From assembly GCA_031549365.1 (NCBI GenBank), contig JAVBPX010000006.1, positions 1-54,153 of the forward strand: a stretch of DNA of 54,153 bases. The letters run 5' to 3'. Made by a program: the position numbers and the translations under genes. This DNA is from Alphaproteobacteria bacterium. GTDB lineage: Bacteria; Pseudomonadota; Alphaproteobacteria; Rs-D84. The number at the start of each line of letters is the position of its first letter. The stretch's first letter is position 1. The notes beneath the pieces were generated by a model. The model was not told where the DNA came from. It made no database searches and saw only the letters and a list, made by a program, of their open reading frames with translations. Shown piece by piece: positions 1,339-41,256 of this stretch.

Positions 1339-2664
1339 TTGAAAACCAAAGTTATTTATATTTCCGGTGGGGCCAAATTTTCCGAGGCTGAAATTAATGC
1401 TGTGTTTACAGAAATTCGTCAGCAAATGGGTTGGGATGACGTTGTGTTATTTGGTGTTCCAATGGATGATCCGGTGGAATTTAATTCCGATAGGGGTACT
1501 TTGGATGTTGGGCAAGAGATTTTGAACCAAGTTCAGACTGACGATGTGATTGAAGGGGCAATTTCGGGAAAATGGGCACAGAATAACCCAATCGAGGATG
1601 ATGTTTTGATGAATGAGCCGCTGGTGGACGCGGTTTGTGCGGCGACCATTGTTGATGATGAAATTGTTGATGTTTCATGCGAAGCAATTAAGGCGGATGA
1701 AGTTATTGAAGTAGTTGCGGATAAAGTGGATGAGATTGCCGCACCAGTAGAGTTGAGCCGCAATGACAATAATATTGAGGCGGAAGAAGCGTCTGTAAAT
1801 ATAGCGCCGATATTGAGTGTTTTGGGTGCTGTTAAGAATATTAGTGAAGTGGTTGTTGAAAATAATGCGGATATTGCAAGGGCAACGGAATTGGTTCGCA
1901 ATGATAATATTGACGAGATTTCAGAAGAATTAGATGATGAAAAATCATTGGTTGCGGCAATTTTTAATGTCGATGAAAATGTTGAGAGTGTTACACAAGC
2001 AGAATTGATTCGTAATGACAATAATTTAGAGAATGTTGAAGTTTCAGTTACTTTGGTGCCGATTTTAGATAATGAGGGGGGCGAGGTTTCTGTAACATCT
2101 GAGATGGTTTCAGAGGATGAAGATGAAGTAATTTCCATTGCATCAACCCCAGTTGATTCAGATGAAAATTCAGAAGTGGCTGATGTGCTTATTGTAAAAC
2201 CGATTGATCTTGATCATGATCCGTTTTGTTTTGGCGATGCTTCGACGTTATCATTTGATCAGAATGGTGCGGATTTAAATTGTCCAACAGCGCCAGAAAT
2301 CGAAGATGAAGAGGATGAAGAAATATTTTCAGTTAAATCATCTTTTACGATAGAAGATATTTTGCCGACAGTGCCAGGATTGACCGAAGAAAAACCGCAA
2401 GATGCAACTTTGCAAGAATTGGCGCAACAGTTCAGCGAGCACAAGTCGGACGAGCCGATTGATTCTGTGGATAAGCCGTCCGGGTTTTCCAAGCTGCGTC
2501 AGATGTTATTTTTGAAAAAAAATGATAGCGAAACAGAAACAAAAACAAAGACCAAGGCAAAGAAAAAAGAGCCTATGTTTGGTTTGTTGGATTTAATTGA
2601 TCAAGCTGATGATGATGTGGATTCTTTTGATTTGCCAAAGTTTTTAAGGCCGGGCGCAGTATGA
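1339..2664 (+). CDS. Acidic, largely disordered protein with FtsZ C-domain-like N-terminus and FtsZ-like C-terminal peptide (no GTPase domain)
   Basis: TTG start with GGAG SD; N-term VIYISGG..EI..IR..VLFG; D/E-rich linker; C-term DSFDLPKFLR. Confidence 0.6.
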   Translation: MKTKVIYISGGAKFSEAEINAVFTEIRQQMGWDDVVLFGVPMDDPVEFNSDRGTLDVGQEILNQVQTDDVIEGAISGKWAQNNPIEDDVLMNEPLVDAVCAATIVDDEIVDVSCEAIKADEVIEVVADKVDEIAAPVELSRNDNNIEAEEASVNIAPILSVLGAVKNISEVVVENNADIARATELVRNDNIDEISEELDDEKSLVAAIFNVDENVESVTQAELIRNDNNLENVEVSVTLVPILDNEGGEVSVTSEMVSEDEDEVISIASTPVDSDENSEVADVLIVKPIDLDHDPFCFGDASTLSFDQNGADLNCPTAPEIEDEEDEEIFSVKSSFTIEDILPTVPGLTEEKPQDATLQELAQQFSEHKSDEPIDSVDKPSGFSKLRQMLFLKKNDSETETKTKTKAKKKEPMFGLLDLIDQADDDVDSFDLPKFLRPGAV

Positions 2665-3725
2665 AGAAAATTATCGCGGGCGCATTTCTGATTTTTTTTG
2701 GGGCTTCGGGTGCGTTTGCGGTTTCTGATTTTGAAATATTACAGAGATTAAATGATTCAGGGATGCCGGCGACGCTAATTTCAACACCGAATGGAGATGT
2801 TTTTCGCGTTTTGGATACCACTTGTTTTGCGTACAGTATTCGTAATTTTATTGATTTCGCACAGGATATTTTATATTTTATAACAGCATTATTATTGTTT
2901 GGTTGGGGGATTTCTGCGATTCGTGGGTCCAAGATTGATTGGATTGAAAATACAAGAAATTTGTTTTTAATATTTGCCGTGGCTACATCAATTAATCCGA
3001 TTATGTCTGTGATTTATGGTGGGCAGGAAATTCATGAAATTGTTTGTCCGACGATTGATGTGCCGGCGGATTCTGTGCGGATGGCTTTGAATGGACGTGC
3101 GGTTTTAAACATGCCAAAAGTTGTTGAAGAATTGGTTGTTGAACGTGGAGCGGAACAGGAAGTTTATACGCGTTCGGATGGTCAAACGTCGTTAATGTTA
3201 ACTGGGCCGGATTATGATCCCGCGCTGGTTTTATCGATGAAATCGGATACAACATTTAGGCGCGCGATGGATATTGTTGCGCGTTTAGAAGGTGGATATG
3301 CAAATAATCGCGCTGATCGTGGTGGACGTACAAATTTTGGTATTACTGAACGATCGTATGGGGCGGATGAAGTTAATAATATGACAAAAGATCGTGCGGA
3401 ATATTTAATGTATAGAGATTTTTATCGAGTGCGTGGAATTGATACCTTGCCCGATACAATTCGGGATGTCGCGTTTGATATGTCCGTTAATTCTGGGCCT
3501 GGGGCTGCTGTTATCAGTTTGCAAAAAGTTTTGGGTGTGTCCCAAACGGGCAAGGTTGATGATGCAACATTAAGTGCGGTAAATAATTACAGGGGGGATT
3601 TGCGCGATGCTTATTTGCAAGAACGCGTTGATAAATACAATCGCATTATTAAAAATAATCCCAGTCAGGAAGTGTTTAAAAAGTCTTGGATGAGGCGAAT
3701 TGATGCATTGAAAAATGCAGCGTAA
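2661..3725 (+). CDS. Membrane-anchored glycoside hydrolase family 108 lysozyme with PG-binding domain
   Basis: EGGYANNRADRGGRTNFGIT GH108 motif, FDMSVNSG, C-terminal F..SW.RRI; signal peptide and two TM segments; ATGA overlap with upstream gene. Confidence 0.85.
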   Translation: MKKIIAGAFLIFFGASGAFAVSDFEILQRLNDSGMPATLISTPNGDVFRVLDTTCFAYSIRNFIDFAQDILYFITALLLFGWGISAIRGSKIDWIENTRNLFLIFAVATSINPIMSVIYGGQEIHEIVCPTIDVPADSVRMALNGRAVLNMPKVVEELVVERGAEQEVYTRSDGQTSLMLTGPDYDPALVLSMKSDTTFRRAMDIVARLEGGYANNRADRGGRTNFGITERSYGADEVNNMTKDRAEYLMYRDFYRVRGIDTLPDTIRDVAFDMSVNSGPGAAVISLQKVLGVSQTGKVDDATLSAVNNYRGDLRDAYLQERVDKYNRIIKNNPSQEVFKKSWMRRIDALKNAA

Positions 3726-4157
3726 TTAATTCATAAAATATGTTTCTGTATAATTAATTAAATCAATAACGTATGTTTTGATGTATGTTGCTGTTTTTTC
3801 GGCAGCCAGGCCATCTGTCATGGATCCGCATTTTGGATAGCATTCATCAGGACCATTATAAATATTTATTGAAGCAGCGGCGGTTTTATTGGCCAAATCG
3901 ATTAAATCGCGTTTCATCTGTTTTGCGGATGATTTGTAATAAGTATCAATTAATCGGCCAGCCACACGGATATAGCAATTTGTTTTTGTGTTGGTTGATG
4001 CCGTCATATTTGATTGGGAAAAATCGATATCCATTGATTGTTCGGATTCCATATCGCAACCATTTAAATCATTACGGTATTTTGATACATCGACATTTGC
4101 GTTTGCGGACGCAATTGTCCCAAATATTAATGAAAATGAAATAATCCATGGTTTCAT
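3726..4157 (-). CDS. Secreted hypothetical protein (Cys-containing)
   Basis: Signal peptide MKPWIISFSLIFGTIASANA; start likely ATG 4157. Confidence 0.6.
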   Translation of the reverse strand: MKPWIISFSLIFGTIASANANVDVSKYRNDLNGCDMESEQSMDIDFSQSNMTASTNTKTNCYIRVAGRLIDTYYKSSAKQMKRDLIDLANKTAAASINIYNGPDECYPKCGSMTDGLAAEKTATYIKTYVIDLINYTETYFMN

Positions 4158-4224: not shown

Positions 4225-5625
4225 ATGAGTAAAAATATTTTAACAATGTATCGCATGGCGAAACAGCAACGTGCCGTTTGGGATAAACGTTGGGATGATT
4301 GTCAACGATATACAATACCAATGAGAGATGATGAAAGTGCAAGTTTATTTGATGCAACTGCCGCGGATGCGGTTGATATGTTGGCTGCATCATTATTTTC
4401 ATTGATGACGCCGCCGGAAAGTTTTTGGGTGTCGTTGACGTCGGCAGATTCTGAAATTAATGTCGATTTCACTCGTTCAGAAAATGCAATACGAAATCAT
4501 TTAAATCAATCAAATTTTTATACCGAAATTCATCAGTGTTATTTGGATTTGGCGATTTTGGGGACTGCATGTTTATACATGAGGGAAGCCCCAATTGGTG
4601 CAGAATCTGCATTCCAATTCCAAGCAATTCCGATGAAAAATGTTTATGTTAACCGCGATTCTGTTGGCGATGTTTCATCTGTGTTCTATGTTTGTTCAAT
4701 GACATCAGATGATGTTGTTAATACGTATTCGGATTGGGATATATCCGATAATTTTGCAACCAAATTTAAAGAAAATCCAGATGCGCATGTGTCAATTGTT
4801 CAATCAATAGTTCGGAATGATTCTGGATATTCGTATGTTGCATTTATTGATTCCGAAAATGATAATTTTGAATCGTGTATTTTATCGCGTGGACAATTTG
4901 TTAAAAATCCATTTTTGATTTTTCGTTGGTCTGCAATGTCGGGTGAAGTTTACGGACGGTCGCCTGTGATGCGGGCGTTGCCAGATATTAAAACTGCGAA
5001 CAAAGTTGTTGAATTGGTTTTGAAAAATGCAACGATTGCGGTTTCTGGTATTTGGCAGGCGGATGATGATGGTGTTTTAAATTTATCAAATGTTCAATTA
5101 ACGCCAGGTGCAATTATCCCCAAGGCTGTTGGGTCGGCTGGTTTGACTCCGTTGCGCGCAGGGGCCGATTTTGATGTGTCGCAATTGATATTAGAAGATT
5201 TACGTGCGCGTATTCGTCATGCTTTGTTGGCGGATCGTTTGTCGATTATGTCGGACAAAGTTATGACCGCCACAGAAATCATAGCGCGAAATACCGATAT
5301 GATGAGAATCTTGGGTGCAACATATGGGCGGATGTTAAATGAATTTATTCGGCCGATGATTGATCGAGGGATGTATATTTTGGCCCGTCGTGGATTAATA
5401 GATCCTGTTATGTTGGATCGTGGTGTTATGACATTGCGCTATGTCGCGCCGATTGCGCGATTGGCTAGCGATGAACAGGCAAATCAAGTTTTATCATGGG
5501 TTAATACAATGGATGTTTTGGGAGTGTCTGGTTCTGTTGATAAATCGGCAACTGTTAAATGGTTGGCGAATGCGTTGCATATTCCAAACGAATTAATAGT
5601 GGTGGATGAAAATGGAATTGCGTAG
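4225..5625 (+). CDS. Phage portal / head-tail connector protein (T7/BPP-1 Bbp21-like)
   Basis: FDATA, SNFYTEIH, GTACL, RW..GEVYGRSP..ALPDIK, MTATEI motifs of podoviral portals; AAGGAG SD. Confidence 0.88.
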   Translation: MSKNILTMYRMAKQQRAVWDKRWDDCQRYTIPMRDDESASLFDATAADAVDMLAASLFSLMTPPESFWVSLTSADSEINVDFTRSENAIRNHLNQSNFYTEIHQCYLDLAILGTACLYMREAPIGAESAFQFQAIPMKNVYVNRDSVGDVSSVFYVCSMTSDDVVNTYSDWDISDNFATKFKENPDAHVSIVQSIVRNDSGYSYVAFIDSENDNFESCILSRGQFVKNPFLIFRWSAMSGEVYGRSPVMRALPDIKTANKVVELVLKNATIAVSGIWQADDDGVLNLSNVQLTPGAIIPKAVGSAGLTPLRAGADFDVSQLILEDLRARIRHALLADRLSIMSDKVMTATEIIARNTDMMRILGATYGRMLNEFIRPMIDRGMYILARRGLIDPVMLDRGVMTLRYVAPIARLASDEQANQVLSWVNTMDVLGVSGSVDKSATVKWLANALHIPNELIVVDENGIA

Positions 5626-17791: not shown

Positions 17792-19144
17792 ATGGCATTA
17801 TTTAAAAAAGTTTTAGTCGCGAATCGTGGTGAAATTGCGTTGCGCATCATTCGCGCTTGCCGTGATATGGGTATTAAAACAGTGGCTGTATATTCGACCG
17901 CCGATCGTGATGCGACGCATGTTCATTTGGCCGATGAATCGGTTTGTATTGGGCCTGCGCCCAGTAAGGATTCATATTTAAATGAATCTGCGATTTTAAC
18001 GGCGGCATTGTTAACAAATGCAGATGCGATTCATCCTGGGTATGGGTTTTTATCCGAACGCGCAGGATTTGTTGAAAAAGTTGAATTACATAAAATTACT
18101 TGGATTGGTCCAACGGCAGAAATGATTGCCAAAATGGGCGATAAAGTTGAAGCAAAGCGTACTGCTATATCTGTTGGATTGCCTGTTGTGCCGGGTTCGG
18201 ATGGGGCTGTTGATACCCTGGATGATGCATTAAGGGTTGCGAATCAAATTGGTTATCCTGTGATGTTAAAGGCATCAGCTGGTGGTGGCGGTAAAGGTAT
18301 TCGCCCGGTTCAATCTGCGGATCAGATGCCAGAGGTATTTAAATTAACCAAAGCCGAAGCAAGGGCTGGATTTGGTGATGATACGTTATATATTGAAAAA
18401 TTGTTAACTCATCCGCGTCATATTGAATTTCAAGTTTTGGCCGATCAGCATGGCAAAGCCGTTATTTTCGGTGAACGCGATTGTTCTTTGCAGCGTAAAA
18501 ATCAAAAAATTATGGAGGAAGCGCCTGCCGCCATTTTAAGCCAAAAGCAACGCGATGATATGATTGAAGTTTGCAAGGAAGCTGTTAAAAAAATGGGTTA
18601 TACCAATGCGGGAACTTTGGAATTTATGTTCGAAGATGGGAAATTTTATTTCTTGGAAATGAATACGCGTTTACAGGTTGAACATCCTGTTACCGAAATG
18701 GTTTATGGTATTGATTTGGTTCGTGAACAAATTCGTATTGCGGCGGGCGAAAAATTGGGATATTCGCAATCTAATTTGGTTGCCAATGGGCATGCTATTG
18801 AATTTCGAATTAATGCCGAAGATCCGGAAACATTTGTGCCATGTGCCGGAACAATTACACAATACAGCCCCCCTGGTGGATTGGGCGTTCGTGTGGATTC
18901 CGCGGTGTATACTGGGTATAAAATTCCGCCTACATATGACAGCATGGTTGCAAAATTAATTGTTTGGGCGCCAAATAGGCCGCAATGTTTAATGCGCGCA
19001 GCTCGGGCTTTGGATGAATTTGTGGTTGATGGTGTTAAAACAACAATTCCGTTGCAACAAAAATTATTGAAAGTGAGTGATGTTAAAACTTTGCAGTTCG
19101 ATAATGCATGGTTGGAAGCGTGGTTAAAGTCTGAAAAAAAATAA
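17792..19144 (+). CDS. accC: Acetyl-CoA carboxylase biotin carboxylase
   Basis: ANRGEIA, HPGYGFLSE, GGGGKG, EMNTRLQVEHPVTE. Confidence 0.97.
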   Translation: MALFKKVLVANRGEIALRIIRACRDMGIKTVAVYSTADRDATHVHLADESVCIGPAPSKDSYLNESAILTAALLTNADAIHPGYGFLSERAGFVEKVELHKITWIGPTAEMIAKMGDKVEAKRTAISVGLPVVPGSDGAVDTLDDALRVANQIGYPVMLKASAGGGGKGIRPVQSADQMPEVFKLTKAEARAGFGDDTLYIEKLLTHPRHIEFQVLADQHGKAVIFGERDCSLQRKNQKIMEEAPAAILSQKQRDDMIEVCKEAVKKMGYTNAGTLEFMFEDGKFYFLEMNTRLQVEHPVTEMVYGIDLVREQIRIAAGEKLGYSQSNLVANGHAIEFRINAEDPETFVPCAGTITQYSPPGGLGVRVDSAVYTGYKIPPTYDSMVAKLIVWAPNRPQCLMRAARALDEFVVDGVKTTIPLQQKLLKVSDVKTLQFDNAWLEAWLKSEKK

Positions 19145-19199
19145 TTGTGCCTTTGGTTGGCGGATTATTTTTAGGAAAATCGTAGTTTAAAAAATAGTA

Positions 19200-19295
19200 T
19201 TGCTATTTTTTGCGGTTTGTGGTATAATATAGTATGTAATGGACAAGATTTGTCCGATGTTTATTTATCCCGACGGTTTCGTCGGGATTTTTTAA
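19200..19295 (+). promoter_or_regulatory. TTGCT-N-TATAAT promoter and two-hairpin leader of Mtd_N gene 1
   Basis: ttgcta-17-tataat; ggacaa-gat-ttgtcc; tcccgacg-gttt-cgtcggga followed by T6. Confidence 0.6.
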
Positions 19296-19311
19296 TTCAA
19301 AAGGATTTTTA

Positions 19312-19863
19312 ATGGCGAGAGCAATTCAATTAAGGCGCGGTTCCCGCGTCGAACATAAAACATTTATTGGACGTGATGGCGAAATAACAGTTGATACAAC
19401 AAATAAATCATTGGTGGTGCATGATGGCGATATTGCGGGCGGTTATGAACTGGCCCGGGCCGATTTGTCGAATACAGATGTAAATGTCGCATTGAGCAAT
19501 TTGCGCGTGGAAATGAACGCGATGAGGGTCGAGTTGGAGAATAAAATAGTAGAGCCGGCGGATTATGTTGTTGATTATTATCCACGCGAATCGGATATGG
19601 CAAGTTGGGATGGAGTATCAGGATTTAGAAAATATAACAGCGGATATATCGAACAATGGGGCCAGGTTGGCGAAGGATCAACAATAATAGTAAACTTTCT
19701 CTGCCCTATGAGAAATACGGGCTATAACATATCTGTATTTAATGGGGATGGCGGGATATCAGCTAATTACAGATTATCATATTCTGCTATGACTATAACA
19801 TCGGTAAAAATTGTTTCAACAGTATCAACAATTAGTGGAAAGCGTTGGCGTATTGCAGGATAA
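19312..19863 (+). CDS. Phage tail-fibre-like protein 1 (Mtd_N N-terminus, gp53-like C-domain)
   Basis: IQLRRG...GEITVDTT.KSLVVHDG..AGG..LARADLSN; GFRKYNSGYIEQWG. Confidence 0.8.
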   Translation: MARAIQLRRGSRVEHKTFIGRDGEITVDTTNKSLVVHDGDIAGGYELARADLSNTDVNVALSNLRVEMNAMRVELENKIVEPADYVVDYYPRESDMASWDGVSGFRKYNSGYIEQWGQVGEGSTIIVNFLCPMRNTGYNISVFNGDGGISANYRLSYSAMTITSVKIVSTVSTISGKRWRIAG

Positions 19864-19866
19864 ACC

Positions 19867-19892
19867 AATGCCCCAAAATTAATTTGGGGCAT
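19867..19892. terminator. Hairpin between convergent genes
   Basis: aatgccccaaa-attaa-tttggggcatt. Confidence 0.6.
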
Positions 19893-19896
19893 TATG

Positions 19897-20871
19897 TTAT
19901 AAACGTTTGTTTGGCAATGTGAATAGTCCGCCGAATTTGAAGTCCCATTCTGATGGGTTAAATGGTCCCATGCCATTGTCCGAATAAAATGTTAGTTCTG
20001 AAAAATATAACTTTCCATTAACATTAAACCAATCAACGCGAACAAATGGAAAATCAGCCGACAATATATTTGATAATTTCAGCATTTCATCGTAGTTTTT
20101 TGGCATTTTAAACTTTGTGAAATTATTCCCATGTGCGCGATTAAACGGATATTTATTAAATTTCATATCAAAAAAGTCCATTTTAACGTCTGTTGAGCGT
20201 TCAGAGCACAGGAAAAAGTTTTTAATTTCTCCGTTATATGATTGAAATTTATAATCAAATAAATCTCCATCAATCTGTTCAATATATTTTTCAGCAATAA
20301 TTTTTGGTTTAATGTTTTTATATGCCCATTCGAAACTGTAAAAATAATGATTTGATTTTGGATTCATCCATTTGCGTAATTTTTCTTTTGCATCATCAAT
20401 ATCCAATTTTGATTTATCACTACAAATTATGTTTTGGCCACTGCCCCAATTAATTTTTAGAGCAAATTGGTTGGGCAATAAATCCCAATCAATATCGTCG
20501 ACCGAATCCCAAACACCCAATAACGGCACTAAATATTTTTCCCCGATTTTGTTTTTGATGTATTCTCGTACAGCAAATTTGTCAGCACATTTTGTCATTA
20601 ATGGATCGTGATAGTATAATTTTAACCATTGGATTTTTTCATTAAACGATTTCGGATTATCAATATCTGGTTTATATCCAACAGAATTTTCGAATTGATA
20701 TTTCAATATGAATTTTTTATCTTTGATTGATAAATTATTATCAAAACGGCGAGCATATAGTTTGTTATATAACTTTTTTTGTGTATCTGATCTTTTAAAA
20801 GAAAATATCTTAACTTTAAACAAATATATCCGAACACGACCTCTCTTTTTTTCAATTTTAAATATTTTCAT
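19897..20871 (-). CDS. TupA-like ATP-grasp amidoligase (polysaccharide modification)
   Basis: NPKSFNEKIQWLKL, DKFAVREY, DYKF, FPFVRVD, SELTFY motifs. Confidence 0.9.
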   Translation of the reverse strand: MKIFKIEKKRGRVRIYLFKVKIFSFKRSDTQKKLYNKLYARRFDNNLSIKDKKFILKYQFENSVGYKPDIDNPKSFNEKIQWLKLYYHDPLMTKCADKFAVREYIKNKIGEKYLVPLLGVWDSVDDIDWDLLPNQFALKINWGSGQNIICSDKSKLDIDDAKEKLRKWMNPKSNHYFYSFEWAYKNIKPKIIAEKYIEQIDGDLFDYKFQSYNGEIKNFFLCSERSTDVKMDFFDMKFNKYPFNRAHGNNFTKFKMPKNYDEMLKLSNILSADFPFVRVDWFNVNGKLYFSELTFYSDNGMGPFNPSEWDFKFGGLFTLPNKRL

Positions 20872-20916
20872 TTGTCCCTCTCGGATGTAAAATTATTAAT
20901 TTATAATAGTTTTTCA

Positions 20917-21777
20917 TTAATGGTGTTTCCCTTGTTTAGAATTATAGGTAAGTTTGAAATCATTCTTTCTGAATCTAAATGATGGATTAGTAAGGTTTGG
21001 GATATTCAACTTGTTTTCCCATAAAACATAATCCAGGCTGAGTTGATCCCGTCTGGAATAATTTTCGATAAAATGCCACCATTCGTTCATAATCTTTATG
21101 CATTTTTTATCCATATGTTTTCGAAAAATCAAGGTTGTTTCGTGTAGACCATAATTTTTTGGAAATTTATCGGATTTTAAAATTTGCTGCATTTTTGACA
21201 TGATTTTTGGGTTGTCTTTTGACGATTTTTCGCATGCAGATATTTCATCGTATATGCAGTTACGCTCGAAATGTTCCGGGATCGACAGAATTTTGTTTTT
21301 TTTAATTATATTTTTAATCCTATTAAAAATATAACCACTGATAATATTTACATTCCCATCGACCCATAGGGAATATTCATAATTTTGCAATAATTCATGT
21401 GGATGGGTTTTATGCCACCGTGCATTTCGAATATTATCAGATTTAGTGTATTTAAGTGCACGGATTTCCCAAATGTCAATATTGCCAGCATTAATTAATT
21501 TTTCATTGTCGGTAAAACAAATATAATCCCAATCAAAGTTTATATATCGTTGATATTGCAAATCATCATATTCCCCAGTTATGCAGGTATATACAGTGTT
21601 TTTTGCAATACGCCTTTTTTTATACTCTATATATTTTTTTATATTTGATTTTTGATATAGTTTGTCAATGTCGTCATTGATTTTGTTTTTATGCTTTTTA
21701 TAACTCTTGGGTGATAAAATGCCTATGAAGCGTAATATTTTGTACCAAATTATTAAATAGTAAAATTTTAATTTCAT
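20917..21777 (-). CDS. Glycosyltransferase domain protein (DUF616/TOD1-MUCI70-like)
   Basis: VYTCITGEYDDL, YICFTD, K.HPH, SLWVDGN, H..RNCIYDE, RDQLS. Confidence 0.85.
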   Translation of the reverse strand: MKLKFYYLIIWYKILRFIGILSPKSYKKHKNKINDDIDKLYQKSNIKKYIEYKKRRIAKNTVYTCITGEYDDLQYQRYINFDWDYICFTDNEKLINAGNIDIWEIRALKYTKSDNIRNARWHKTHPHELLQNYEYSLWVDGNVNIISGYIFNRIKNIIKKNKILSIPEHFERNCIYDEISACEKSSKDNPKIMSKMQQILKSDKFPKNYGLHETTLIFRKHMDKKCIKIMNEWWHFIENYSRRDQLSLDYVLWENKLNIPNLTNPSFRFRKNDFKLTYNSKQGKHH

Positions 21778-22721
21778 TTATTTCTCTTGAAAGCGATACT
21801 TTTTGGAATCGATATGTAAAATATAGGTAAATGAAACAATCGAATTAAAAACCGATAGTTTCCATTTTTTTTGTACCGGCCCCGAATTGATAAAAAACTT
21901 TTGTTGATTAAATCAAAAAATACATATTGGAAACGGCGATTTTTAAAATTTCGAATTACTTCTGGATCTACTGTTCGCGTCAGATTATTTTCGATGAGTT
22001 CGGCCAGTTTTTTATTAGTGCATTTTATTGATCCGATAATGTTTTTTATTGATCCGATAAAGTTGCTATCGTTGTTATAAAATGCAGCCTTTTTAACGAA
22101 TGGGACACCATGATTTAAAACCCAGATCGGATTTAAATAGGGCCAATTTAAACGATATTTTACCAACGGATTTAATTTGTGCCCATGCTTTTTAATTAAT
22201 TCGGACAATCCAATTTCATATTTTTCAATGATTAGATCTTTGTGATTTTCGTGCTTAACCGATTTCATAAATTCATTGAACCAATCGGATAGAAATATTG
22301 AAGAGGACAATCCGACAAACCAAGACTGAATATGTGGACGACTATAATCCAACATAAACATCCCGACCGCGTCCGAGCCAGAATTTTCCAATTTTTCAAC
22401 AATTGGCTTTAAATCAGATGTTGGACCATAAGCACTGTCGTTTACCAAATAAACCCAATCGTATTTTGATAATAAATCGTTGTCGCGGGCCCAAAAATAA
22501 GCACGCTTATACGAACCAAAATCATATTCGCCGTGTTTGCCGATAATTTGATGAATTGTATATGGTTTTACTTTTTTAGCCTGGGCATCCGAATTGTCAT
22601 TATCCGTTACAAAAATAATATCGCCCAACTTGGATAATTCAGCCAGATAATAAATAACATAATCATCAATTATTGCGTCGCGGTCATAGCTGGCGAACAG
22701 AAAGAGGCGGATTTTGGTCAT
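21774..22721 (-). CDS. Rhamnan synthesis F (RgpF)-like protein, copy A
   Basis: FASYD..IDDYVIYYL, YDFGSYK, LVNDSAYGP, HIQSWF, YEIGLS, PFVKK. Confidence 0.8.
   Translation of the reverse strand: MTKIRLFLFASYDRDAIIDDYVIYYLAELSKLGDIIFVTDNDNSDAQAKKVKPYTIHQIIGKHGEYDFGSYKRAYFWARDNDLLSKYDWVYLVNDSAYGPTSDLKPIVEKLENSGSDAVGMFMLDYSRPHIQSWFVGLSSSIFLSDWFNEFMKSVKHENHKDLIIEKYEIGLSELIKKHGHKLNPLVKYRLNWPYLNPIWVLNHGVPFVKKAAFYNNDSNFIGSIKNIIGSIKCTNKKLAELIENNLTRTVDPEVIRNFKNRRFQYVFFDLINKSFLSIRGRYKKNGNYRFLIRLFHLPIFYISIPKSIAFKRNK
21814..21923. repeat. Inverted repeat (3' block, 110 bp) pairing with 23901-24010
   Basis: Three mismatches by manual alignment. Confidence 0.85.
22363..22694. repeat. Inverted repeat (5' block) pairing with ~23148-23479
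   Basis: High identity over ~330 bp; 22363-22484 is identical (122 bp) to the reverse complement of 23358-23479. Confidence 0.9.
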
Positions 22722-22848
22722 AAATTATCCATTTTGTATATTATAGTATGTGGATTTTGGATGATTATAGTGTTCAAGTCAAGGGGAAATTTATTTGCTT
22801 GATTAAACCGCGGGTTGAAATTCTGGATTTGTTTCAATTATTAAAAGA

Positions 22849-22891
22849 ATATTATAGTCTGTCGACTTATAGTGTGTGCTTTTTTTATAAT
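22849..22891 (+). promoter_or_regulatory. C-box-like double operator and -10 of a likely leaderless transcript
   Basis: ATATTATAGTC-TGTC-GACTTATAGTG vs the PvuII-type GACT-N3-AGTC-TGTA-GACT-N3-AGTC; TATAAT at 22886-22891, 6 nt before ATG, no SD. Confidence 0.7.
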
Positions 22892-22897
22892 TTTTAT

Positions 22898-23131
22898 ATG
22901 ATTGAAAATTTATCCCAAATCATTGCAGAGCGTGTGCAATTTGAGCGTAAAAAATTGCATTTATCGCAAGAAAAACTGGCCGAGAGAGCGGGGATTCACA
23001 GGACTTATGTTGGAATGATCGAGCGGGCTGAAAAAAATGTTACAATTTACAGCTTGGCCAAGATTTGCGGTGCGTTTGGGATTACATTATTTGAATTTTT
23101 TAATGCAAAAGAGTTTAAAGATGAAAAGTAA
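22898..23131 (+). CDS. XRE-family HTH regulator, R-M controller (C) protein-like
   Basis: 77 aa; LSQEKLAERAGIHRTYVGMIERAEKNVTI contains the HRTY recognition helix of C proteins; overlaps next gene. Confidence 0.85.
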   Translation: MIENLSQIIAERVQFERKKLHLSQEKLAERAGIHRTYVGMIERAEKNVTIYSLAKICGAFGITLFEFFNAKEFKDEK

Positions 23132-24050
23132 GCGATTGTTTTTATTTGCCAGCTATGACCGCGATGCAATAATTGATGATTATGTTATTTATTACCTGGC
23201 TGAATTATCCAAGTTGGGTGATATTATTTTTGTAACGGATAACGATAATTCGGATGCCGAAATCGCGCGCGTAAAACCATATACAATCCATCAAATTATT
23301 GGCAAACACGGCGAATATGATTTTGGTTCGTATAAACGTGCTTATGTTTGGGCTCGTGACAACGATTTATTATCAAAATACGATTGGGTTTATTTGGTAA
23401 ACGACAGTGCTTATGGTCCAACATCTGATTTAAAGCCAATTGTTGAAAAATTGGAAAATTCTGGCTCGGACGCGGTCGGATTATTTTATCACGATTATCT
23501 GGACGAGGCGTATTTGCAATCCTGGTTTATTGGGTTAAAGCCAAAAATATTCAAATCACGTTGGTTTGATCACTTCATTTCTGATGTAAAAAAAGAAAAG
23601 ACTAAGGAATTAGTTGTTGAAATGTATGAAATGAAATTTACAAAATTATTAAAAGAAAAAAAACACACCATATCATTTATAACAAAACACAAAAAAAACC
23701 AAACATTTATTGATCCAATATGGGCATTGAATAGTGGGATTCCTTTTATAAAAAAGGCTTCGTTTTACAATATCGAAGGGGAATTTCTGGACAATGTGCA
23801 ATGGGGCAATGATGATTTGGAGCGTGCGGTTAAAAAAAATATAACACGCGTTATGGATCAGGATGTTTTGAAAAACATGAGAAACAGACGGTTCAGGTTC
23901 GTATTTTTTGATTTAATCAACAAAAGTTTTTTATCAATTCGGGGTCGGTACAAAAAAAATGGAAACTATCGGTTTTTAATTAGATTGTTTCATTTGCCTA
24001 TATTTTACATGTCTGTGCCGAAAAAATGGGCCATCAAGGAGGATAAATGA
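23121..24050 (+). CDS. Rhamnan synthesis F (RgpF)-like protein, copy B
   Basis: Paralogue of 21774-22721; start ATG 23121 by alignment to copy A. Confidence 0.8.
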   Translation: MKSKRLFLFASYDRDAIIDDYVIYYLAELSKLGDIIFVTDNDNSDAEIARVKPYTIHQIIGKHGEYDFGSYKRAYVWARDNDLLSKYDWVYLVNDSAYGPTSDLKPIVEKLENSGSDAVGLFYHDYLDEAYLQSWFIGLKPKIFKSRWFDHFISDVKKEKTKELVVEMYEMKFTKLLKEKKHTISFITKHKKNQTFIDPIWALNSGIPFIKKASFYNIEGEFLDNVQWGNDDLERAVKKNITRVMDQDVLKNMRNRRFRFVFFDLINKSFLSIRGRYKKNGNYRFLIRLFHLPIFYMSVPKKWAIKEDK

Positions 24051-24991
24051 AAGATTTAATTTCCGTTATTATTCCGGTATACAATGTTGAAAAATATGTA
24101 GAACGATGCTTGGATTCTGTTATCGCGCAAACATATAAAAACATTGAAATTATTGTAATTGATGATGGTTCTGTTGATAGTTCTGTTTCGATTATTAAAA
24201 AATTTAAAGACAAGCGTATAAAACTGATTGTCAAAGGGTATAATTCAGGGCAAAGTGATTCAAGAAATATCGGATTGTCTTTGGCCAAAGGTAAATACAT
24301 CGGTTTTATCGATAGCGATGATTATGTTGATTTGAACTATTTTGAAAAAATGCACAATGCTGCAAAACAGAATGATGCTGAAATTGTTATGGTTGGGATG
24401 TGTTCCGATGATGGATATAATAAAATTTATGATCGTATAATGGATAATGTTTATGTTTCGTTTTATGATAAATTAAAAACTGCAAAAAACGGTAGTACGT
24501 GCAATAAATTATTCAAGTATGATTTTATAAGAAAAAATAAAATAAGCTTTCCAACAGGATTGTTTTGGGAAGATAATGTCTTTATTTTGCATGCCGTATA
24601 TTATGCGAAAAAAATGGCAACCGTGTCAGATGTGTTTTATTATTATGTTAAAAATCAATCTTCTACTACTCGTTCTGAGGCTAATATAAAAAAGAGATCT
24701 GATGATAGTATTACTGTGATAAAACAAATGATGGATTTTGCCAAAGCAAAACAATTTTCAAAACTGGATATAGATTTGCTGGTAAATTTTTGTTTTAGCA
24801 ATATTGTTGCAAAATCGGATATGAAAAATAGGGCTTATGTTAAAAAACTTGATTCTGCAATTGGTATACATGGAGTATTGAATAAAAGACGTCCAAAATT
24901 TCCATTTTGGTATAAAATTATAGGCTTGTTTTTGGGACGAAAAAAATACAAAGAATTCAAAAATAACTGGAAAAAGGCACGCTATGATTAA
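24047..24991 (+). CDS. Glycosyltransferase family 2
   Basis: ISVIIPVYN, IDDGS, FIDSDD, WED. Confidence 0.92.
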   Translation: MKDLISVIIPVYNVEKYVERCLDSVIAQTYKNIEIIVIDDGSVDSSVSIIKKFKDKRIKLIVKGYNSGQSDSRNIGLSLAKGKYIGFIDSDDYVDLNYFEKMHNAAKQNDAEIVMVGMCSDDGYNKIYDRIMDNVYVSFYDKLKTAKNGSTCNKLFKYDFIRKNKISFPTGLFWEDNVFILHAVYYAKKMATVSDVFYYYVKNQSSTTRSEANIKKRSDDSITVIKQMMDFAKAKQFSKLDIDLLVNFCFSNIVAKSDMKNRAYVKKLDSAIGIHGVLNKRRPKFPFWYKIIGLFLGRKKYKEFKNNWKKARYD

Positions 24992-26534
24992 ATTGTTATA
25001 TTTTAATGCGGAACGCAATTTTGGGGATGAGCTGAATGTTTTAATTGCAAAAAAGATGTTTTGCATTGATGTTGTGCCAGAGGGGGGTAAAAAAGCGGAT
25101 GCGATTTTCATTGGCAGTTTGTTGCAAAGTTTGACTGTAAATAAAAATCCGCGTTTTTGGAAAAATCTGTTTAGAATATTTAAAAAGAAAAAACGGCCCA
25201 TTAATGTTTGGGGGTCTGGTTTTATTAGCGCACCAGCTGGCCGAGAATATTTACCCAGGCCATTGAATGTTTATGCAGTGCGCGGTAAATACAGTTTGGA
25301 TCGTTTGAAAAAATTAACTCATAAATCTTTGGATAATGCTGTGTTGGGGGATCCTGGCTTGTTGGCATCCAGGTTTATTCCACAGCAATCAAAAAAATAT
25401 GATGTTGGGATTATTCCGCATTATGTAGATAAAAAAAATCCGGCGTTAAAAAATATAAAATTAAAGGGATTATCACACAAAATAATTGATGTTCAACAAG
25501 ACCCAGAAACTGTTATTAAACAGATTTCTGAATGTGGATTTATTTTGTCTTCGTCATTACACGGTTTGATTATTGCTGATAGTTACGGCATCCCAAATCA
25601 ATGGATTGAGTTATCCGATATGGTTCTTGGAAGCGGGTATAAGTTTGCAGATTATTATTCTGCGTTTGGATTGTCAGGTATCAATCAGGTCGATTTGCGT
25701 ATAACACAAATTGTAGATGCTGATATTAAAAAATGGACGAAAGCATATCCGGTTAAACAAAATGTGGTTCAAAAATTATGTGATGGTTTGCAGAAAGCAT
25801 TTCCGTACAAGGTAAAATTTACATTGCCGTTACATTTAATACAAAATATTCGATTTTTAACGGCTGTGGCGGAACAATTTCCAAATGTCGTGGTGGACAA
25901 GGAAAGCAAGCAAATAATTGATCATTTAAATAAATATTTTAAATACAATATCGAAACAGTTGATAAAAATTCGGTAAATGTTTTTGATATAAAAAATATA
26001 TCGTTCGAACATAAAACTCCTGTTGTTCGATTTGGAGACAGGGCGTGGCCGTTGGTTTTTTCAAAACAAATGTTGGACTTTTGTCAGAATGTGGTGGGAA
26101 AAAATGGTATTACATTTTCTGGATTTAAAACAAAAATGCGCGTTAGTTGTTTAGAAAGATGGATTAAAAATATTTTAAAGAATGATTTTGAGTTTGATGG
26201 AGATAAAAAGAAGTTTTCCATTAAAAATCCGGTTGATGTTGAAATAACGTTTTCAAATAATGGTCGAGATTGGCCAGAAAAGTCTTGGGATAATGAATAT
26301 TATTTGGAATTAAAAAAATCTGAATTTGTTTTGTGCCCGAATGGCGATTTTATTTGGACATATCGGTTTTTTGAATCAATTATGTGCAATGCAATCCCGA
26401 TAGTCGAGGATGTGTGCGATTTGTATGATGGTTTTTATTTTTATGATATGAAAACCCCGTTGTCCCGATTGAAATATAATAAAAAATGGGCCCAACATAA
26501 TTTAAAATTGTTTATTGAAAGATATATGTTTTGA
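24984..26534 (+). CDS. Polysaccharide pyruvyl transferase fused to an exostosin/GT47-like domain
   Basis: NFGDELN, WGSG, AVRG, GDPGLL, IIPH, SSSLHGLIIADSYGIP; C-term SEFVLCPNGD..WTYRFFESI..AIPI. Confidence 0.8.
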   Translation: MIKLLYFNAERNFGDELNVLIAKKMFCIDVVPEGGKKADAIFIGSLLQSLTVNKNPRFWKNLFRIFKKKKRPINVWGSGFISAPAGREYLPRPLNVYAVRGKYSLDRLKKLTHKSLDNAVLGDPGLLASRFIPQQSKKYDVGIIPHYVDKKNPALKNIKLKGLSHKIIDVQQDPETVIKQISECGFILSSSLHGLIIADSYGIPNQWIELSDMVLGSGYKFADYYSAFGLSGINQVDLRITQIVDADIKKWTKAYPVKQNVVQKLCDGLQKAFPYKVKFTLPLHLIQNIRFLTAVAEQFPNVVVDKESKQIIDHLNKYFKYNIETVDKNSVNVFDIKNISFEHKTPVVRFGDRAWPLVFSKQMLDFCQNVVGKNGITFSGFKTKMRVSCLERWIKNILKNDFEFDGDKKKFSIKNPVDVEITFSNNGRDWPEKSWDNEYYLELKKSEFVLCPNGDFIWTYRFFESIMCNAIPIVEDVCDLYDGFYFYDMKTPLSRLKYNKKWAQHNLKLFIERYMF

Positions 26535-26576
26535 TATAAAAACTCCCAATAGGGAGTTTTTTATTTGAGGTCGGGT

Positions 26577-27173
26577 TTATTTTCCTTCGGCCGAAAACCA
26601 GCCAATGAAGTTTGTTTGATTCCCTGTGCCACTTTTTGGATATACTGTAAATGAGGTGAGTGAATTATTTATTTGTGGGTTTACGCTGACCGATGTTGCG
26701 CCTGCGGCTGGGATGCCGTTTGTTGTTGGTGTGAGGCTGAGATTTGAAACGCGTGTTGTAAATGCGACTGGATATGTTATTGTGCCTCCATATGAAGCCG
26801 CTGATACAAATGATTTAACTTGTTTATGTCCGGATTTTCGGATTTCCCATTTCGTATATCCGTCCCATGTTGCCATATCCGATTCGCGGGGATAGTAATC
26901 AATAATATAATCGGCGGCGGAATTTGTTCCTGATTCTAATTCATTTTTTATTTCTTGGATTTCGTTTCGTAATGCATTTAAGTCTTGGGTTGATGCAAAA
27001 TTTGAATTAGTATTCGATAAATCGGCACGAGCTAGTTCGTATCCTCCGGGTTTTTCATTATCGTGTACGACCAATGTGTTATTTGTTGTATCTACGGTTA
27101 TTTCCCCTGTTTTCCCAATGAATGTTTCGTGTTCGGATTTTGTCCCACGACGTAATTGAATCGAACGTGCCAT
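26577..27173 (-). CDS. Phage tail-fibre-like protein 2 (Mtd_N N-terminus)
   Basis: MARSIQLRRGT..GEITVDTT..LVVHD..GGYELARADLSN; shares DYYPRESDMA.WDG with 19312-19863; YPVAF..W.AEG C-domain. Confidence 0.8.
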   Translation of the reverse strand: MARSIQLRRGTKSEHETFIGKTGEITVDTTNNTLVVHDNEKPGGYELARADLSNTNSNFASTQDLNALRNEIQEIKNELESGTNSAADYIIDYYPRESDMATWDGYTKWEIRKSGHKQVKSFVSAASYGGTITYPVAFTTRVSNLSLTPTTNGIPAAGATSVSVNPQINNSLTSFTVYPKSGTGNQTNFIGWFSAEGK

Positions 27174-27174
27174 A

Positions 27175-27336
27175 TTATTCCACCGTTATTTCTGGTTCAA
27201 TAATTTCAGGTTGGTCGATTAAAATCAATTCGCCGTTTTCAACGGATAAAATTTTGCCCGATGCGTTTGCCTGGATTGCCATTTCTGTATAATGTTTAGG
27301 ATTTTGATTAAATATTGATATTAATTGTTGTTCCAT
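27175..27336 (-). CDS. Small protein upstream of tail-fibre-like gene (possible fibre chaperone)
   Basis: ATG 27336 with AAGGAG SD; 53 aa; stop 1 nt before the Mtd_N start. Confidence 0.55.
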   Translation of the reverse strand: MEQQLISIFNQNPKHYTEMAIQANASGKILSVENGELILIDQPEIIEPEITVE

Positions 27337-27360
27337 TGTTTTTGCTCCTTTGGTAAAAAA

Positions 27361-27447
27361 TAAAAAAGCCGGCGAAAGCCGACCAAATAAAAACCCAATC
27401 AATTGGGAATATGTGTGCATTATATCATAAATGGTTGAAAAAAGCAA
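27361..27447 (-). promoter_or_regulatory. TTGCT-N-TATAAT promoter and two-hairpin leader of Mtd_N operon 2
   Basis: On minus strand: ttgctt-17-tataat; cccaa-ttga-ttggg-T5; gtcggc-tttc-gccggc-T6. Confidence 0.6.
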
Positions 27448-27545
27448 TTGAAAATGAAGTTTGGGGTCCTCTATTTATGGTTGAGGACAGGATTGTTTTA
27501 TGGTATAATTGCACGCAAGAGAAGTTTGAAAACAAGGAGAAAGAT

Positions 27546-39336: not shown

Positions 39337-40116
39337 ATGGCAAGAATAGTTCAACAGAGAAGGGGAAATTCAAATTCCCATAAAATATATACAGGAATGG
39401 ACGGCGAAATTACGGTTGATACAACAGACCGCACAGTTGTTGTGCATGATCAACAAACTGCGGGTGGATTTCCATTGGCGCGTGCAGATTTATCAAATGT
39501 TTCGGACGATGTTTTATCGAGCCGAATTTGCGATATGGGGACAGGGGTTGTTGATGTGGCGACGACGGATGTGTTCGGCACAGTTAAATTGGCAGAGATT
39601 GGAGATATAACATCGGAAAATTGTGTTGTTACGTCGGCTGGTTTGGGAAATGCAATTTCAAATTTGGTTGGTGTTAATTTAAATAATGTGCCGGATGAAG
39701 ATTGGAATGCGCTGTTTGCAAAATTTGGTTTGGCACCGATGCGGTTTAAACAGAGTTCTGAAATTGAAATGTTTGCAGGATCGGCAATGGCGCATATTTT
39801 TGGAGTGCGGGGTTCATTGTTTCAAGATATAAATCGTGTTCGTGCGGATGCAATATTGGTTTGTAAAACAGCCGAGGGTGGTTACGAAGCAGGAGATCGT
39901 TGTTATACGTTTGGTGTTCGTATTGATACGACAACTAATGTTAATTTGGCGCCGAATGTTATGGTTCGTTCTGATTCTCTGGGTGATTATATTCAATTGA
40001 ATATTGGTCCAGCCAGTGGTGCAAATACGGGTTTAATCGGACAATTGCGCGATGGCCCAGGGGTATTTAACATAACGTTAAATAAATGGAGATTAGTATT
40101 CAGGGTTTGGTATTAA
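39337..40116 (+). CDS. Phage tail-fibre-like protein 3 (Mtd_N N-terminus)
   Basis: QQRRG..GEITVDTT.RTVVVHD..AGGFPLARADLSN; ATTDVFGTVKLA fibre repeat; L.CKTAEGGY..GD..KWRL...W fibre C-domain. Confidence 0.8.
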   Translation: MARIVQQRRGNSNSHKIYTGMDGEITVDTTDRTVVVHDQQTAGGFPLARADLSNVSDDVLSSRICDMGTGVVDVATTDVFGTVKLAEIGDITSENCVVTSAGLGNAISNLVGVNLNNVPDEDWNALFAKFGLAPMRFKQSSEIEMFAGSAMAHIFGVRGSLFQDINRVRADAILVCKTAEGGYEAGDRCYTFGVRIDTTTNVNLAPNVMVRSDSLGDYIQLNIGPASGANTGLIGQLRDGPGVFNITLNKWRLVFRVWY

Positions 40117-40180: not shown

Positions 40181-41137
40181 TTATTTAAACCATTTTAAAA
40201 TGTTTGGGATAAAAAAGAAGCGGAATTTAAATTTCATATATTGATTTTTATTAATCATTTGTATGAAAGCTGCATCTTTTTTATCCAGTTTTTTTAAATC
40301 GATTTTTATTCTGTTTAATGCCAATTTGATTCTGTTAAAACATTCCCAAGAATCGTAGCAAAATTTTGTCGAACTGCGTAACATGCGTATCGGTGGTAAT
40401 ATTTTTTTGTCCCAACCATGTTTTTTATATTCATTCCAAATCATAACGAATAAATTAATCATATCCCAATTATTGGATTTGCGTTGTTTTGTTGTGCGAA
40501 TAATTGATGTTGGTGTTTGACGATAAAAATATGTTCCACCGTGTGTTAATGCGACATTTTTAATTTGAGGCATTAAAATGTAATAAAACCAGGTGTCTTC
40601 GAACTTTTTCCCGACAGGGAATTCCAATTTTAATTTTTTAATGGTTGAACGTTTATATAATTTATTCCAAGCATTTACAACGCCGAAAACATGATAAATT
40701 TTATCCGGAGTCATTTCATATACGCCCGGTTTGTGTTTTAATTCAGGACCAGATTTTGGAATGTGTCCCAAAAAGGGGACGATATTGTCATTAATTGCAA
40801 TATCAACGTTATTTTTTGTGGCAGCATTAACCAAGTCAGATATAAATGTTTTTGAAATATGGTCGTCCGAATCAATAAAATATAACCATTCGCCGGTTGC
40901 GTGTTTCATTCCTGTGTTTCGGGCGCCAGATAATCCCATGTTTTTTTGGCGTATGAATTTTATGCGTTTGTCAGATTTTGCGTATTTTTCGATTATTTTG
41001 TGTTCGTTTTCAGGGCTGCCGTCATCAATAATAATTATTTCCAAATTTTGGTATGTTTGATTAATGACAGAATCCAAGCATTCGGATATATATTTTTCAA
41101 CCCGATATACCGGGATTATGACGGAAACTTTCTGCAT
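40181..41137 (-). CDS. Glycosyltransferase family 2
   Basis: KVSVIIPVY, IDDGS, GLSGARN, FIDSDD, FED; start ATG 41137. Confidence 0.92.
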   Translation of the reverse strand: MQKVSVIIPVYRVEKYISECLDSVINQTYQNLEIIIIDDGSPENEHKIIEKYAKSDKRIKFIRQKNMGLSGARNTGMKHATGEWLYFIDSDDHISKTFISDLVNAATKNNVDIAINDNIVPFLGHIPKSGPELKHKPGVYEMTPDKIYHVFGVVNAWNKLYKRSTIKKLKLEFPVGKKFEDTWFYYILMPQIKNVALTHGGTYFYRQTPTSIIRTTKQRKSNNWDMINLFVMIWNEYKKHGWDKKILPPIRMLRSSTKFCYDSWECFNRIKLALNRIKIDLKKLDKKDAAFIQMINKNQYMKFKFRFFFIPNILKWFK

Positions 41138-41256
41138 TTGGGCCCCCATGGTTATGATCATTATGGATTGTTTGAATTATGTTGTCAAACTTTATTGACT
41201 TTGATTTCTGGTGTGTTAAAATCGCGGCATCATTTAATTAACCAAAGGGGTAAGTA

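Follow-up and report, generated by a model that had tools for sequence, protein, structure and literature searches.

The stretch of DNA analysed here (54,153 nucleotides (nt), referred to as the window) is contig JAVBPX010000006.1 of the alphaproteobacterial genome assembly GCA_031549365.1 (lineage Rs-D84), which comes from an invertebrate gut sample. Between two divergent operons for glycan enzymes, it carries a gene for a small helix-turn-helix (HTH) regulator of the controller (C) family that is known from restriction-modification (R-M) systems. We give about an even chance to the reading that this gene and its operators form a C/QseC-like autoregulated switch that is wired to two alternative glycan operons, the regulator probably choosing which of the two surface-sugar operons is on. 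The proposal builds on the family membership of the regulator, the double operator upstream of its gene, the layout of the locus and the fold of the flanking enzymes.

The regulator and its operators

The initial annotation, which had been made from the sequence alone, described a 77 amino acid long XRE protein with an HRTY recognition helix, and the translated open reading frame (ORF) indeed contains this helix within the stretch IHRTYVGMIER. The public gene call P0004 predicts a 127 amino acid long ORF starting at 22748, but the shorter ORF starting at 22898 is preferred because the N-termini of 80 homologues align with its start. HTH_3 is the only Pfam match (1.3e-13, residues 16-67). Comparison with proteins of solved structure in the PDB revealed C.BclI as the top match (3.7e-11), with C.AhdI in third (1.4e-6) and C.Esp1396I in fourth place (2.1e-5); QseC, which acts outside of R-M systems, is also found among these matches (4e-5). 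All 19 residues that are invariant across a 24-sequence alignment are kept, and H34, R35, T36 and Y37 belong to these invariant positions. Thus, judged by its sequence and its best solved relatives, the regulator is a member of the C family and not a generic XRE protein. The closest non-self protein in a collection of 5.8 billion proteins is 64% identical across 77% of the length, and the genome contains a single copy of the gene. The Control_protein model of PADLOC also matched the regulator (1.4e-16), but it was dropped as a discriminator and given no weight because unrelated XRE proteins reach 1e-11 to 1e-13 with the same model.

The main operator (22849-22874) consists of the string ATATTATAGTC-TGTC-GACTTATAGTG. 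The published C-box consensus is GACT-N3-AGTC-N4-GACT-N3-AGTC, whose best-conserved element is the GT at the centre of the spacer, and the HRTY helix accompanies TGTA spacers, PvuII-type C-boxes and leaderless mRNAs (Mruk, Rajesh and Blumenthal 2007, PMC2175313). Written against this consensus, the operator reads atat-tat-AGTC-tgtc-GACT-tat-AGTg; it matches 12 of the 16 symmetry positions (1, 4, 4 and 3 of 4 in the successive half-boxes) and keeps the central GT. It is located 23 nt from the regulator ATG, a distance that is also typical for the nearest clade of homologues (22-23 nt). A TATAAT sequence is present at 22886-22891, 6 nt upstream of the ATG; only T and A lie in between, and a Shine-Dalgarno sequence is absent. 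The rightward -35 hexamer TCGACT is placed within the C-box spacer and half-box 2A, as in the PvuII system, where the strong C-dependent transcript is leaderless and its -35 element overlaps the same two parts (PMC2175313). The geometry of this promoter-like site therefore fits a leaderless transcript, and the operator is a double C-box of the PvuII type, as in the initial annotation, that keeps its usual distance from a leaderless-type start.

On the opposite strand, a leftward promoter-like site approaches from the other side, and the -35-like hexamers of both sites overlap inside the C-box, where the two opposite-strand sites share 22860-22867. A second operator copy starts only 17 nt from the ATG of the divergent gene, termed gene A below, and overlaps a second leftward promoter-like site (22754-22782). 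Aligned with the main operator, this copy reads ATATTATAGT, A for C, TGT, G for C, GA, a gap and TTATAGTGT. The additional ATTATAGT motifs that had been reported at 22740 and 22764 are present, and the clustering of box motifs at this locus exceeds chance: ATTATAGT occurs 21 times on both strands of the 911-kb genome, three of these within 112 nt here, while TTATAGT is found 11 times on both strands of the window versus 4.55 +/- 1.96 times in shuffled sequences, with four of the 11 copies on the forward strand inside the 133 nt between 22741 and 22873.

A weight matrix derived from 58 distinct operators of homologue loci was scored on 1,821,336 genome positions, and the sites at 22846 and 22735 ranked fifth and eighth, respectively. 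Their scores (6.3 and 4.2) are far under the training median of 42.2, since neither site retains the outer parts of the family operator. A search of Rfam over 19000-27500 matched no family (E up to 0.1), and the putative leader of gene A revealed no unusual structure (z -0.52).

Paralogous glycosyltransferases in two divergent operons

The stop codon of the regulator gene overlaps the ATG of the downstream gene B (23121) by 11 nt, while gene A runs in the divergent direction from 22721 to 21774, in line with the layout given in the initial annotation. As also stated there, both neighbours are RgpF-like, and neither of them is a methylase or a nuclease. Both proteins match Pfam RgpF with 6e-15 (55.2 and 55.3 bits versus a cut-off of 25), the matches spanning the N-terminal 206-245 of 503 profile positions, and PADLOC returned no match for either of them.

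What the initial annotation had missed is that A and B are inverted paralogues, with 209 identities in 316 aligned columns. Residues 5-120 are identical between the two proteins, residues 121-260 differ, and the genes form the two arms of a gene-length inverted repeat. A 216-nt block within it is 96% alike (22356-22571 with 23271-23486) and a second near-identical block is located near the 3' ends, while the middle is only about 50% alike. An extension of the repeat to 18 nt upstream of both start codons was considered and rejected: visual inspection gave a match at only 8 of the 18 positions, and the A/B homology therefore begins at approximately codon 4. One more ATTATAGT copy, which may be there by chance, is found where the variable region begins, just past the end of the 96% block at 22356 (22341-22348, reverse strand, which is the coding strand of gene A).

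An AlphaFold model of B, based on 35 sequences (pLDDT 87.8), displays a GT-A fold that compares with nucleotide-sugar GT-A transferases, including the rhamnosyltransferase RmlT, at a TM-score of about 0.4. The invariant N94-D95-S96 is located in the half that A and B have in common. Because of the modelled fold and the position of these residues, A and B are predicted to have a common donor-binding half and a differing acceptor half.

Each of the two genes heads its own glycan operon, and neighbouring genes overlap by 4-8 nt along both arms (Table 1). The GC content of this glycan island (19900-26550) is 0.25-0.37 versus 0.40-0.44 on either side and a genome mean of 0.39, and the housekeeping genes accB and accC abut it. 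None of the 46 window ORFs that were scanned against Pfam contains an R-M, recombinase, conjugation or integrase domain.

Table 1. Positions of the regulator gene, its operators and promoter-like sites, the two glycan operons and the tail-fibre-like genes in the window.
Feature	Position	Strand	Details
Controller-type (C/QseC-like) HTH regulator gene	22898-23131	+	77 amino acid ORF, HRTY recognition helix
Main double C-box	22849-22874	+	Box 1 22849-22859, spacer TGTC 22860-22863, box 2 22864-22874
Promoter-like site of C gene	22862-22891	+	TCGACT, 18 nt, TATAAT; 10/12 matches, pattern match
Leftward promoter-like site	22837-22865	-	TCGACA, 17 nt, AATAAT; 10/12 matches, pattern match only
Second operator copy	22738-22772	+	Same orientation as main operator, 9-nt insertion between its two boxes
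Second leftward promoter-like site	22754-22782	-	TTGACT, 17 nt, CAAAAT; 9/12 matches, pattern match only
RgpF-like GT-A glycosyltransferase A, 315 amino acids	21774-22721	-	First gene of leftward operon
RgpF-like GT-A glycosyltransferase B, 309 amino acids	23121-24050	+	Directly behind C gene
Inverted repeat, left arm	21772-22739		Gene-length; pairs with 23103-24052
Inverted repeat, right arm	23103-24052		Pairs with 21772-22739
TOD1/MUCI70-like glycosyltransferase-like gene	20917-21777	-	Pfam 9e-13; 4-nt overlap with gene A
TupA-like ATP-grasp gene	19897-20871	-	Pfam 1.4e-52; last in leftward operon
Terminator-like hairpin	19866-19894	-	Closes leftward operon
GT2 glycosyltransferase gene	24047-24991	+	Pfam 2.6e-38; 4-nt overlap with gene B
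Pyruvyl-transferase / GT47-like fusion	24984-26534	+	PS_pyruv_trans 1.5e-22; last in rightward operon
Mtd_N / gp53-like gene	19312-19863	+	
Mtd_N / gp53-like gene	26577-27173	-	
Mtd_N / gp53-like gene	39337-40116	+	

The mirror-like arrangement raises the question of whether the locus varies by DNA rearrangement instead of by bistability of a C protein. Recombination at the 96% block, be it by inversion or by gene conversion, could re-aim the segment that carries the promoter and the C gene to the other variable half, and the inverted arms of 0.95 kb with their two near-identical blocks would provide the substrate; conserved ends with a divergent middle are a mosaic that is typical of ongoing gene conversion. 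On the other hand, no recombinase domain is present in the 46 window ORFs scanned, and both genes possess complete starts, so that either orientation would yield two whole genes. We consider a recombination switch distinctly unlikely.

The same repeat could have misled the assembly, in which case the mirror arrangement would be a chimera formed at the near-identical blocks. Three sequencing runs were available, all as contigs, and the contigs of the run that holds the locus break exactly at these blocks. However, an 819-nt contig spans 22512-23330 without any difference and links the starts of A and B with the two operators and the C gene, and the depth is about 32-35 over both variable halves and the centre, which is the same as over the flanks. 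An artefact of this kind is therefore highly improbable. A candidate joint in the contigs (20876 to 24649) was discarded since one side measures only 22 nt, which is too short to trust. RNA information comes from one metatranscriptome, which contains contigs identical to the A arm at 21191-21445 and 22042-22370, possibly by DNA carry-over; no RNA contigs cover the C-B arm, which is not evidence of its silence.

A further alternative is a prophage-type conversion module, in which receptor-modifying genes derived from a phage or another element would be controlled by an immunity-type XRE repressor and bracketed by tail-fibre-like genes. Two Mtd_N / gp53-like genes do bracket the island, a third adjoins another GT2 gene, phage-like portal and lysozyme genes are located at 2.6-5.6 kb, and phage-related ORFs are counted at most C-like loci in Table 1 of Sorokin, Severinov and Gelfand (2009, PMC2632904). 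Against such a module stand the absence of an integrase, a capsid gene or att-like repeats next to the island, the housekeeping accB and accC genes that adjoin it and the fact that RgpF-like genes are common, 18 of 36 genomes of the host family containing them (36-48% identity). These points leave this explanation only a slim chance.

The genome contains three Mtd_N / gp53-like paralogues, all within the window. Each is convergent with a glycosyltransferase-type gene, the third one with the GT2 gene at 40181-41161 (reverse strand), and the two that border the island are 59% identical across their first 116 residues. The proximity of fibre-like genes to glycan enzymes may reflect a functional link or may mark where an acquired island begins and ends. 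Close to the first letters of the window, 2661-3725 and 4225-5625 encode a GH108 lysozyme-like protein that also has a peptidoglycan-binding domain and a portal protein (head-tail connector of the T7 type), respectively, which suggests a phage remnant or an element similar to a gene transfer agent.

Homologous loci and the place of the regulator in the C family

A scan with one genome per species retrieved 546 relatives of the regulator, and the best 80 loci were examined. The regulator is 50-64% identical to this family. An operator of the same kind is present upstream of the gene in 80 of 80 loci, as typified by GCTAACTATAGTATGTAGAACTAAAGTTAGC in L018, and AGTNTGTNG is matched at 77 of them. 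Since five loci are cut by contig ends, neighbours could be read for 75, and these were counted by hand. A DNA methyltransferase gene is located beside the C gene at 58 of the 75 loci, 57 times in the first two downstream ORFs and once upstream; in L091, the methylase match is under the Pfam cut-off, yet the first ORF encodes a BsoBI-family nuclease. A named restriction endonuclease family is found directly behind the C gene at 20 loci (HindIII, BglII, ScaI, MunI, Bsp6I, MamI, AccI, BsoBI and Alw26I). In contrast to these partners, an RgpF-like gene is found beside none of the 75 readable homologues, and none of 341 neighbour ORFs of these loci resembles A or B (phmmer, E up to 10).

The initial annotation had likened the locus to the divergent layout of the PvuII system. 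This applies to the operator and to the leaderless-type start, but not to the gene order of the close homologues, in which the C gene is most commonly followed by the endonuclease gene and then by a convergent methylase gene, as is also seen on an annotated Aeromonas plasmid.

Some of the homologue loci have unusual partners. In the Patescibacteria loci L019, L020, L044, L066 and L077, the methyltransferase (N6_N4 and C5 types), which is encoded by the second ORF after the C gene, is part of a fusion of 522-566 amino acids with N-terminal LexA DNA-binding and S24 peptidase domains. In L065 and L089, the place of the classical endonuclease is taken by a Schlafen group 3 helicase-like protein (674-688 amino acids), which is encoded immediately after the C gene and ahead of a C5 methylase. 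In L035 (Desulfonema magnum), a Wzz/GNVR chain-length-determinant gene lies 511 nt downstream of a C homologue with the family operator, and the two nearest ORFs to each side include no R-M gene; none of the other 75 loci has a polysaccharide-related neighbour.

In a tree of 78 distinct rows and 71 columns (three identical rows dropped, one row cut to 75 residues), the regulator is sister (88/89 support) to seven loci of Pseudomonadota from Ralstonia, Paraburkholderia, Pseudomonas, Thermomonas, Silvimonas and Salinisphaerales. All seven possess the operator, and none has a recognisable R-M neighbour. Apart from one pair shown by two Paraburkholderia loci, these seven loci have no partner gene in common. 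One of them adjoins phage-type recombination genes, and a Cupriavidus homologue is located on a conjugative plasmid amid hypothetical genes. The sister loci resemble the candidates of Sorokin, Severinov and Gelfand, who predicted many C proteins at loci that lack R-M genes but show PvuII-like double boxes, and left their targets open; Table 1 and discussion passages of that study mention no glycan-gene target (PMC2632904). Thus, the family and its typical operator are as the initial annotation had proposed, whereas the direct origin from a co-opted R-M circuit that it inferred is unnecessary, because the nearest branch lacks R-M genes and because QseC and the loci of Sorokin (2009) provide precedents.

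Several observations weigh against a working glycan switch. At the level of the operator, half-box 1A fits the consensus at only one of four positions, and the spacer TGTC differs from TGTA, any change of which abolished activation by C.PvuII (Mruk 2007, PMC2175313); promoter-like sites are no commoner here than in shuffled sequences (48 versus 43 +/- 5.6). How the central segment is oriented towards the variable halves, and with it which half lies behind the C gene, depends on the assembly, since contigs are interrupted at the 96% repeat. The regulator sits on a long branch (2.03) of a poorly resolved tree in which bootstrap values have not settled. The arrangement itself is held by one assembly only: 40 relatives of the same family and order contain no close C homologue (the best, with 35% identity, lies elsewhere), and the RgpF loci of 14 relatives lack a C-like gene (tblastn, E up to 10) as well as a box cluster. 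Motif and synteny are thus both absent in the relatives searched, an outcome that the initial annotation had named as counting against its own reading. A metagenome scan with the B protein retrieved 42 loci, all of them with at most 48% identity, and therefore no sister strains were found.

XRE regulators adjoining RgpF-like genes are not unusual, because in five of these 42 loci a longer XRE gene (102-121 amino acids, without HRTY) is divergent from the RgpF-like gene. In these loci (L120, L123, L128, L131 and L132), the XRE gene is located approximately 200-300 nt upstream of the RgpF-like gene, which itself lies at about position 4001, or at 2099 in L131; CATAGT-type motifs recur in the leader between the two genes, and a terminator-like hairpin immediately precedes the transferase gene.

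The lack of conservation, together with the long branch, also speaks for the possibility that the C gene and its operators are a passenger or relic of a mobile element or of a lost R-M system, which would only autoregulate or be inert while the glycan operons are driven by their own promoters. The low GC content of the island suggests acquired DNA, and in the nearest clade the genes stand alone in contexts that vary and are in part phage-like or on plasmids. However, the ORF is intact and all family-invariant residues are kept, the operator is present in two copies, the stop-start overlap with gene B is exact, and no R-M remnant is found in the island or in the rest of the window. On balance, we regard a passenger or relic as rather unlikely.

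A proposed glycan switch and its relation to known systems

In the proposed C/QseC-like switch, a basal promoter would yield little C protein. C dimers would most likely occupy the better box pair at 22849-22874 and stimulate their own leaderless transcript, with activation at a low and self-limitation at a high C level. This transcript is predicted to continue through gene B, the GT2 gene and the pyruvyl-transferase fusion to 26534, as the observed gene overlaps suggest. Since the leftward -35 hexamer lies in the same operator and a second copy precedes gene A, the bound regulator would block the leftward operon: occupancy of the C-box would cover this hexamer, the expanded copy might add exclusion or a roadblock, and the A arm (A, the TOD1-like and the TupA-like genes) would fall or be shut down. 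Positive feedback would keep this state self-sustaining, while in the absence of C protein the A arm would run and the C-B arm would stay basal. The expected outcome is a self-sustaining either/or choice between two operons for the decoration of glycans, whose lead enzymes would have the donor-binding half in common but not the acceptor half.

The regulator resembles C.PvuII, C.BclI, C.AhdI and C.Esp1396I in size, HTH_3 family, HRTY helix and the double C-box with a GT-centred 4-nt spacer, and the locus shares with C proteins of R-M systems the -35 element in the operator, the -10 element by the ATG and the overlap of the regulator gene with the gene it leads. Different from these systems, an endonuclease or methylase is not linked to it, and paralogous glycosyltransferases are found behind and divergent from the gene; half-box 1A is degenerate, the spacer is TGTC and the second operator copy is widened by 9 nt. 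C proteins repress the methylase gene in the Esp1396I and EcoRV systems, the repression of a divergent methylase promoter being among the examples, and Kpn2I is a further case (2025 review, PMC12707154). C.Kpn2I and its Esp1396I and EcoRV counterparts work through exclusion or a roadblock at a promoter that is either divergent or a second one, which is the role proposed for 22738-22772; their sites govern R-M genes, whereas the repressor or roadblock role suggested here follows from position. Hysteresis has been demonstrated for the PvuII circuit (Williams, Savageau and Blumenthal 2013, PMC3695507).

ICEMlSymR7A, an integrative and conjugative element (ICE) of the alphaproteobacterium Mesorhizobium, is controlled by QseC, which is similar to C.PvuII but unlinked to R-M genes (Ramsay and co-workers, PMC8789080). 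The sites bound by QseC, OL and OR, are located between divergent promoters that overlap each other; QseC increases expression of its own leaderless gene and decreases that of the divergent qseM, leading to a bimodal state that is heritable, and C-like proteins of at least six families are located beside qseM homologues across Alphaproteobacteria (PMC8789080). Our locus is similar in that a C-family protein is encoded without R-M partners, and the two divergent promoter-like sites that share the C-box, which here are pattern matches, would correspond to the QseC layout. QseC targets a quorum-sensing antiactivator and ICE transfer, whereas here the targets would be glycan enzymes: the divergent partner is a glycosyltransferase, and no qseM/traM homologue or ICE genes were seen in the window. 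The likeness of the regulator to QseC (4e-5) is also weaker than its likeness to C.BclI (3.7e-11).

No paper connecting glycan genes with C-boxes or with controller proteins was found in the literature searches. Phase-variable modification of glycans is known from gtr operons, which depend on Dam and OxyR, and for Bacteroides capsule loci with their invertible promoters. The control proposed here would be of a similar kind, as it would switch surface-glycan decorating enzymes on or off or select between them, but it would operate by a C-type autoregulatory protein switch, in contrast to DNA methylation patterns or site-specific inversion. That the locus represents a C-type bistable circuit which selects between glycan operons in a heritable manner without DNA rearrangement or methylation, and which homologous inversion at the 96% repeat could additionally re-aim, appears doubtful to us. 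Because C-type switches outside of R-M systems are already documented, the switch would be of a known and not of a new kind.

Controller proteins are the textbook timing device of R-M systems, and QseC has extended this module to a heritable switch of gene transfer. If the bistable circuit holds true, clonal cells of this gut symbiont would present two types of glycan, and surface-glycan phase variation would be achieved by a new mechanism that derives from an R-M controller module. A C module wired to two glycan operons would thereby extend controller proteins to surface variation, which governs phage adsorption and host recognition; one could even speculate, as the initial annotation did, about a role in phage-receptor masking. 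With about 400 bp, one 77 amino acid long protein and two outputs, the locus would be a compact natural toggle, and it would give a concrete, testable case for the question, posed by Sorokin (2009), of what C-like proteins without R-M partners control.

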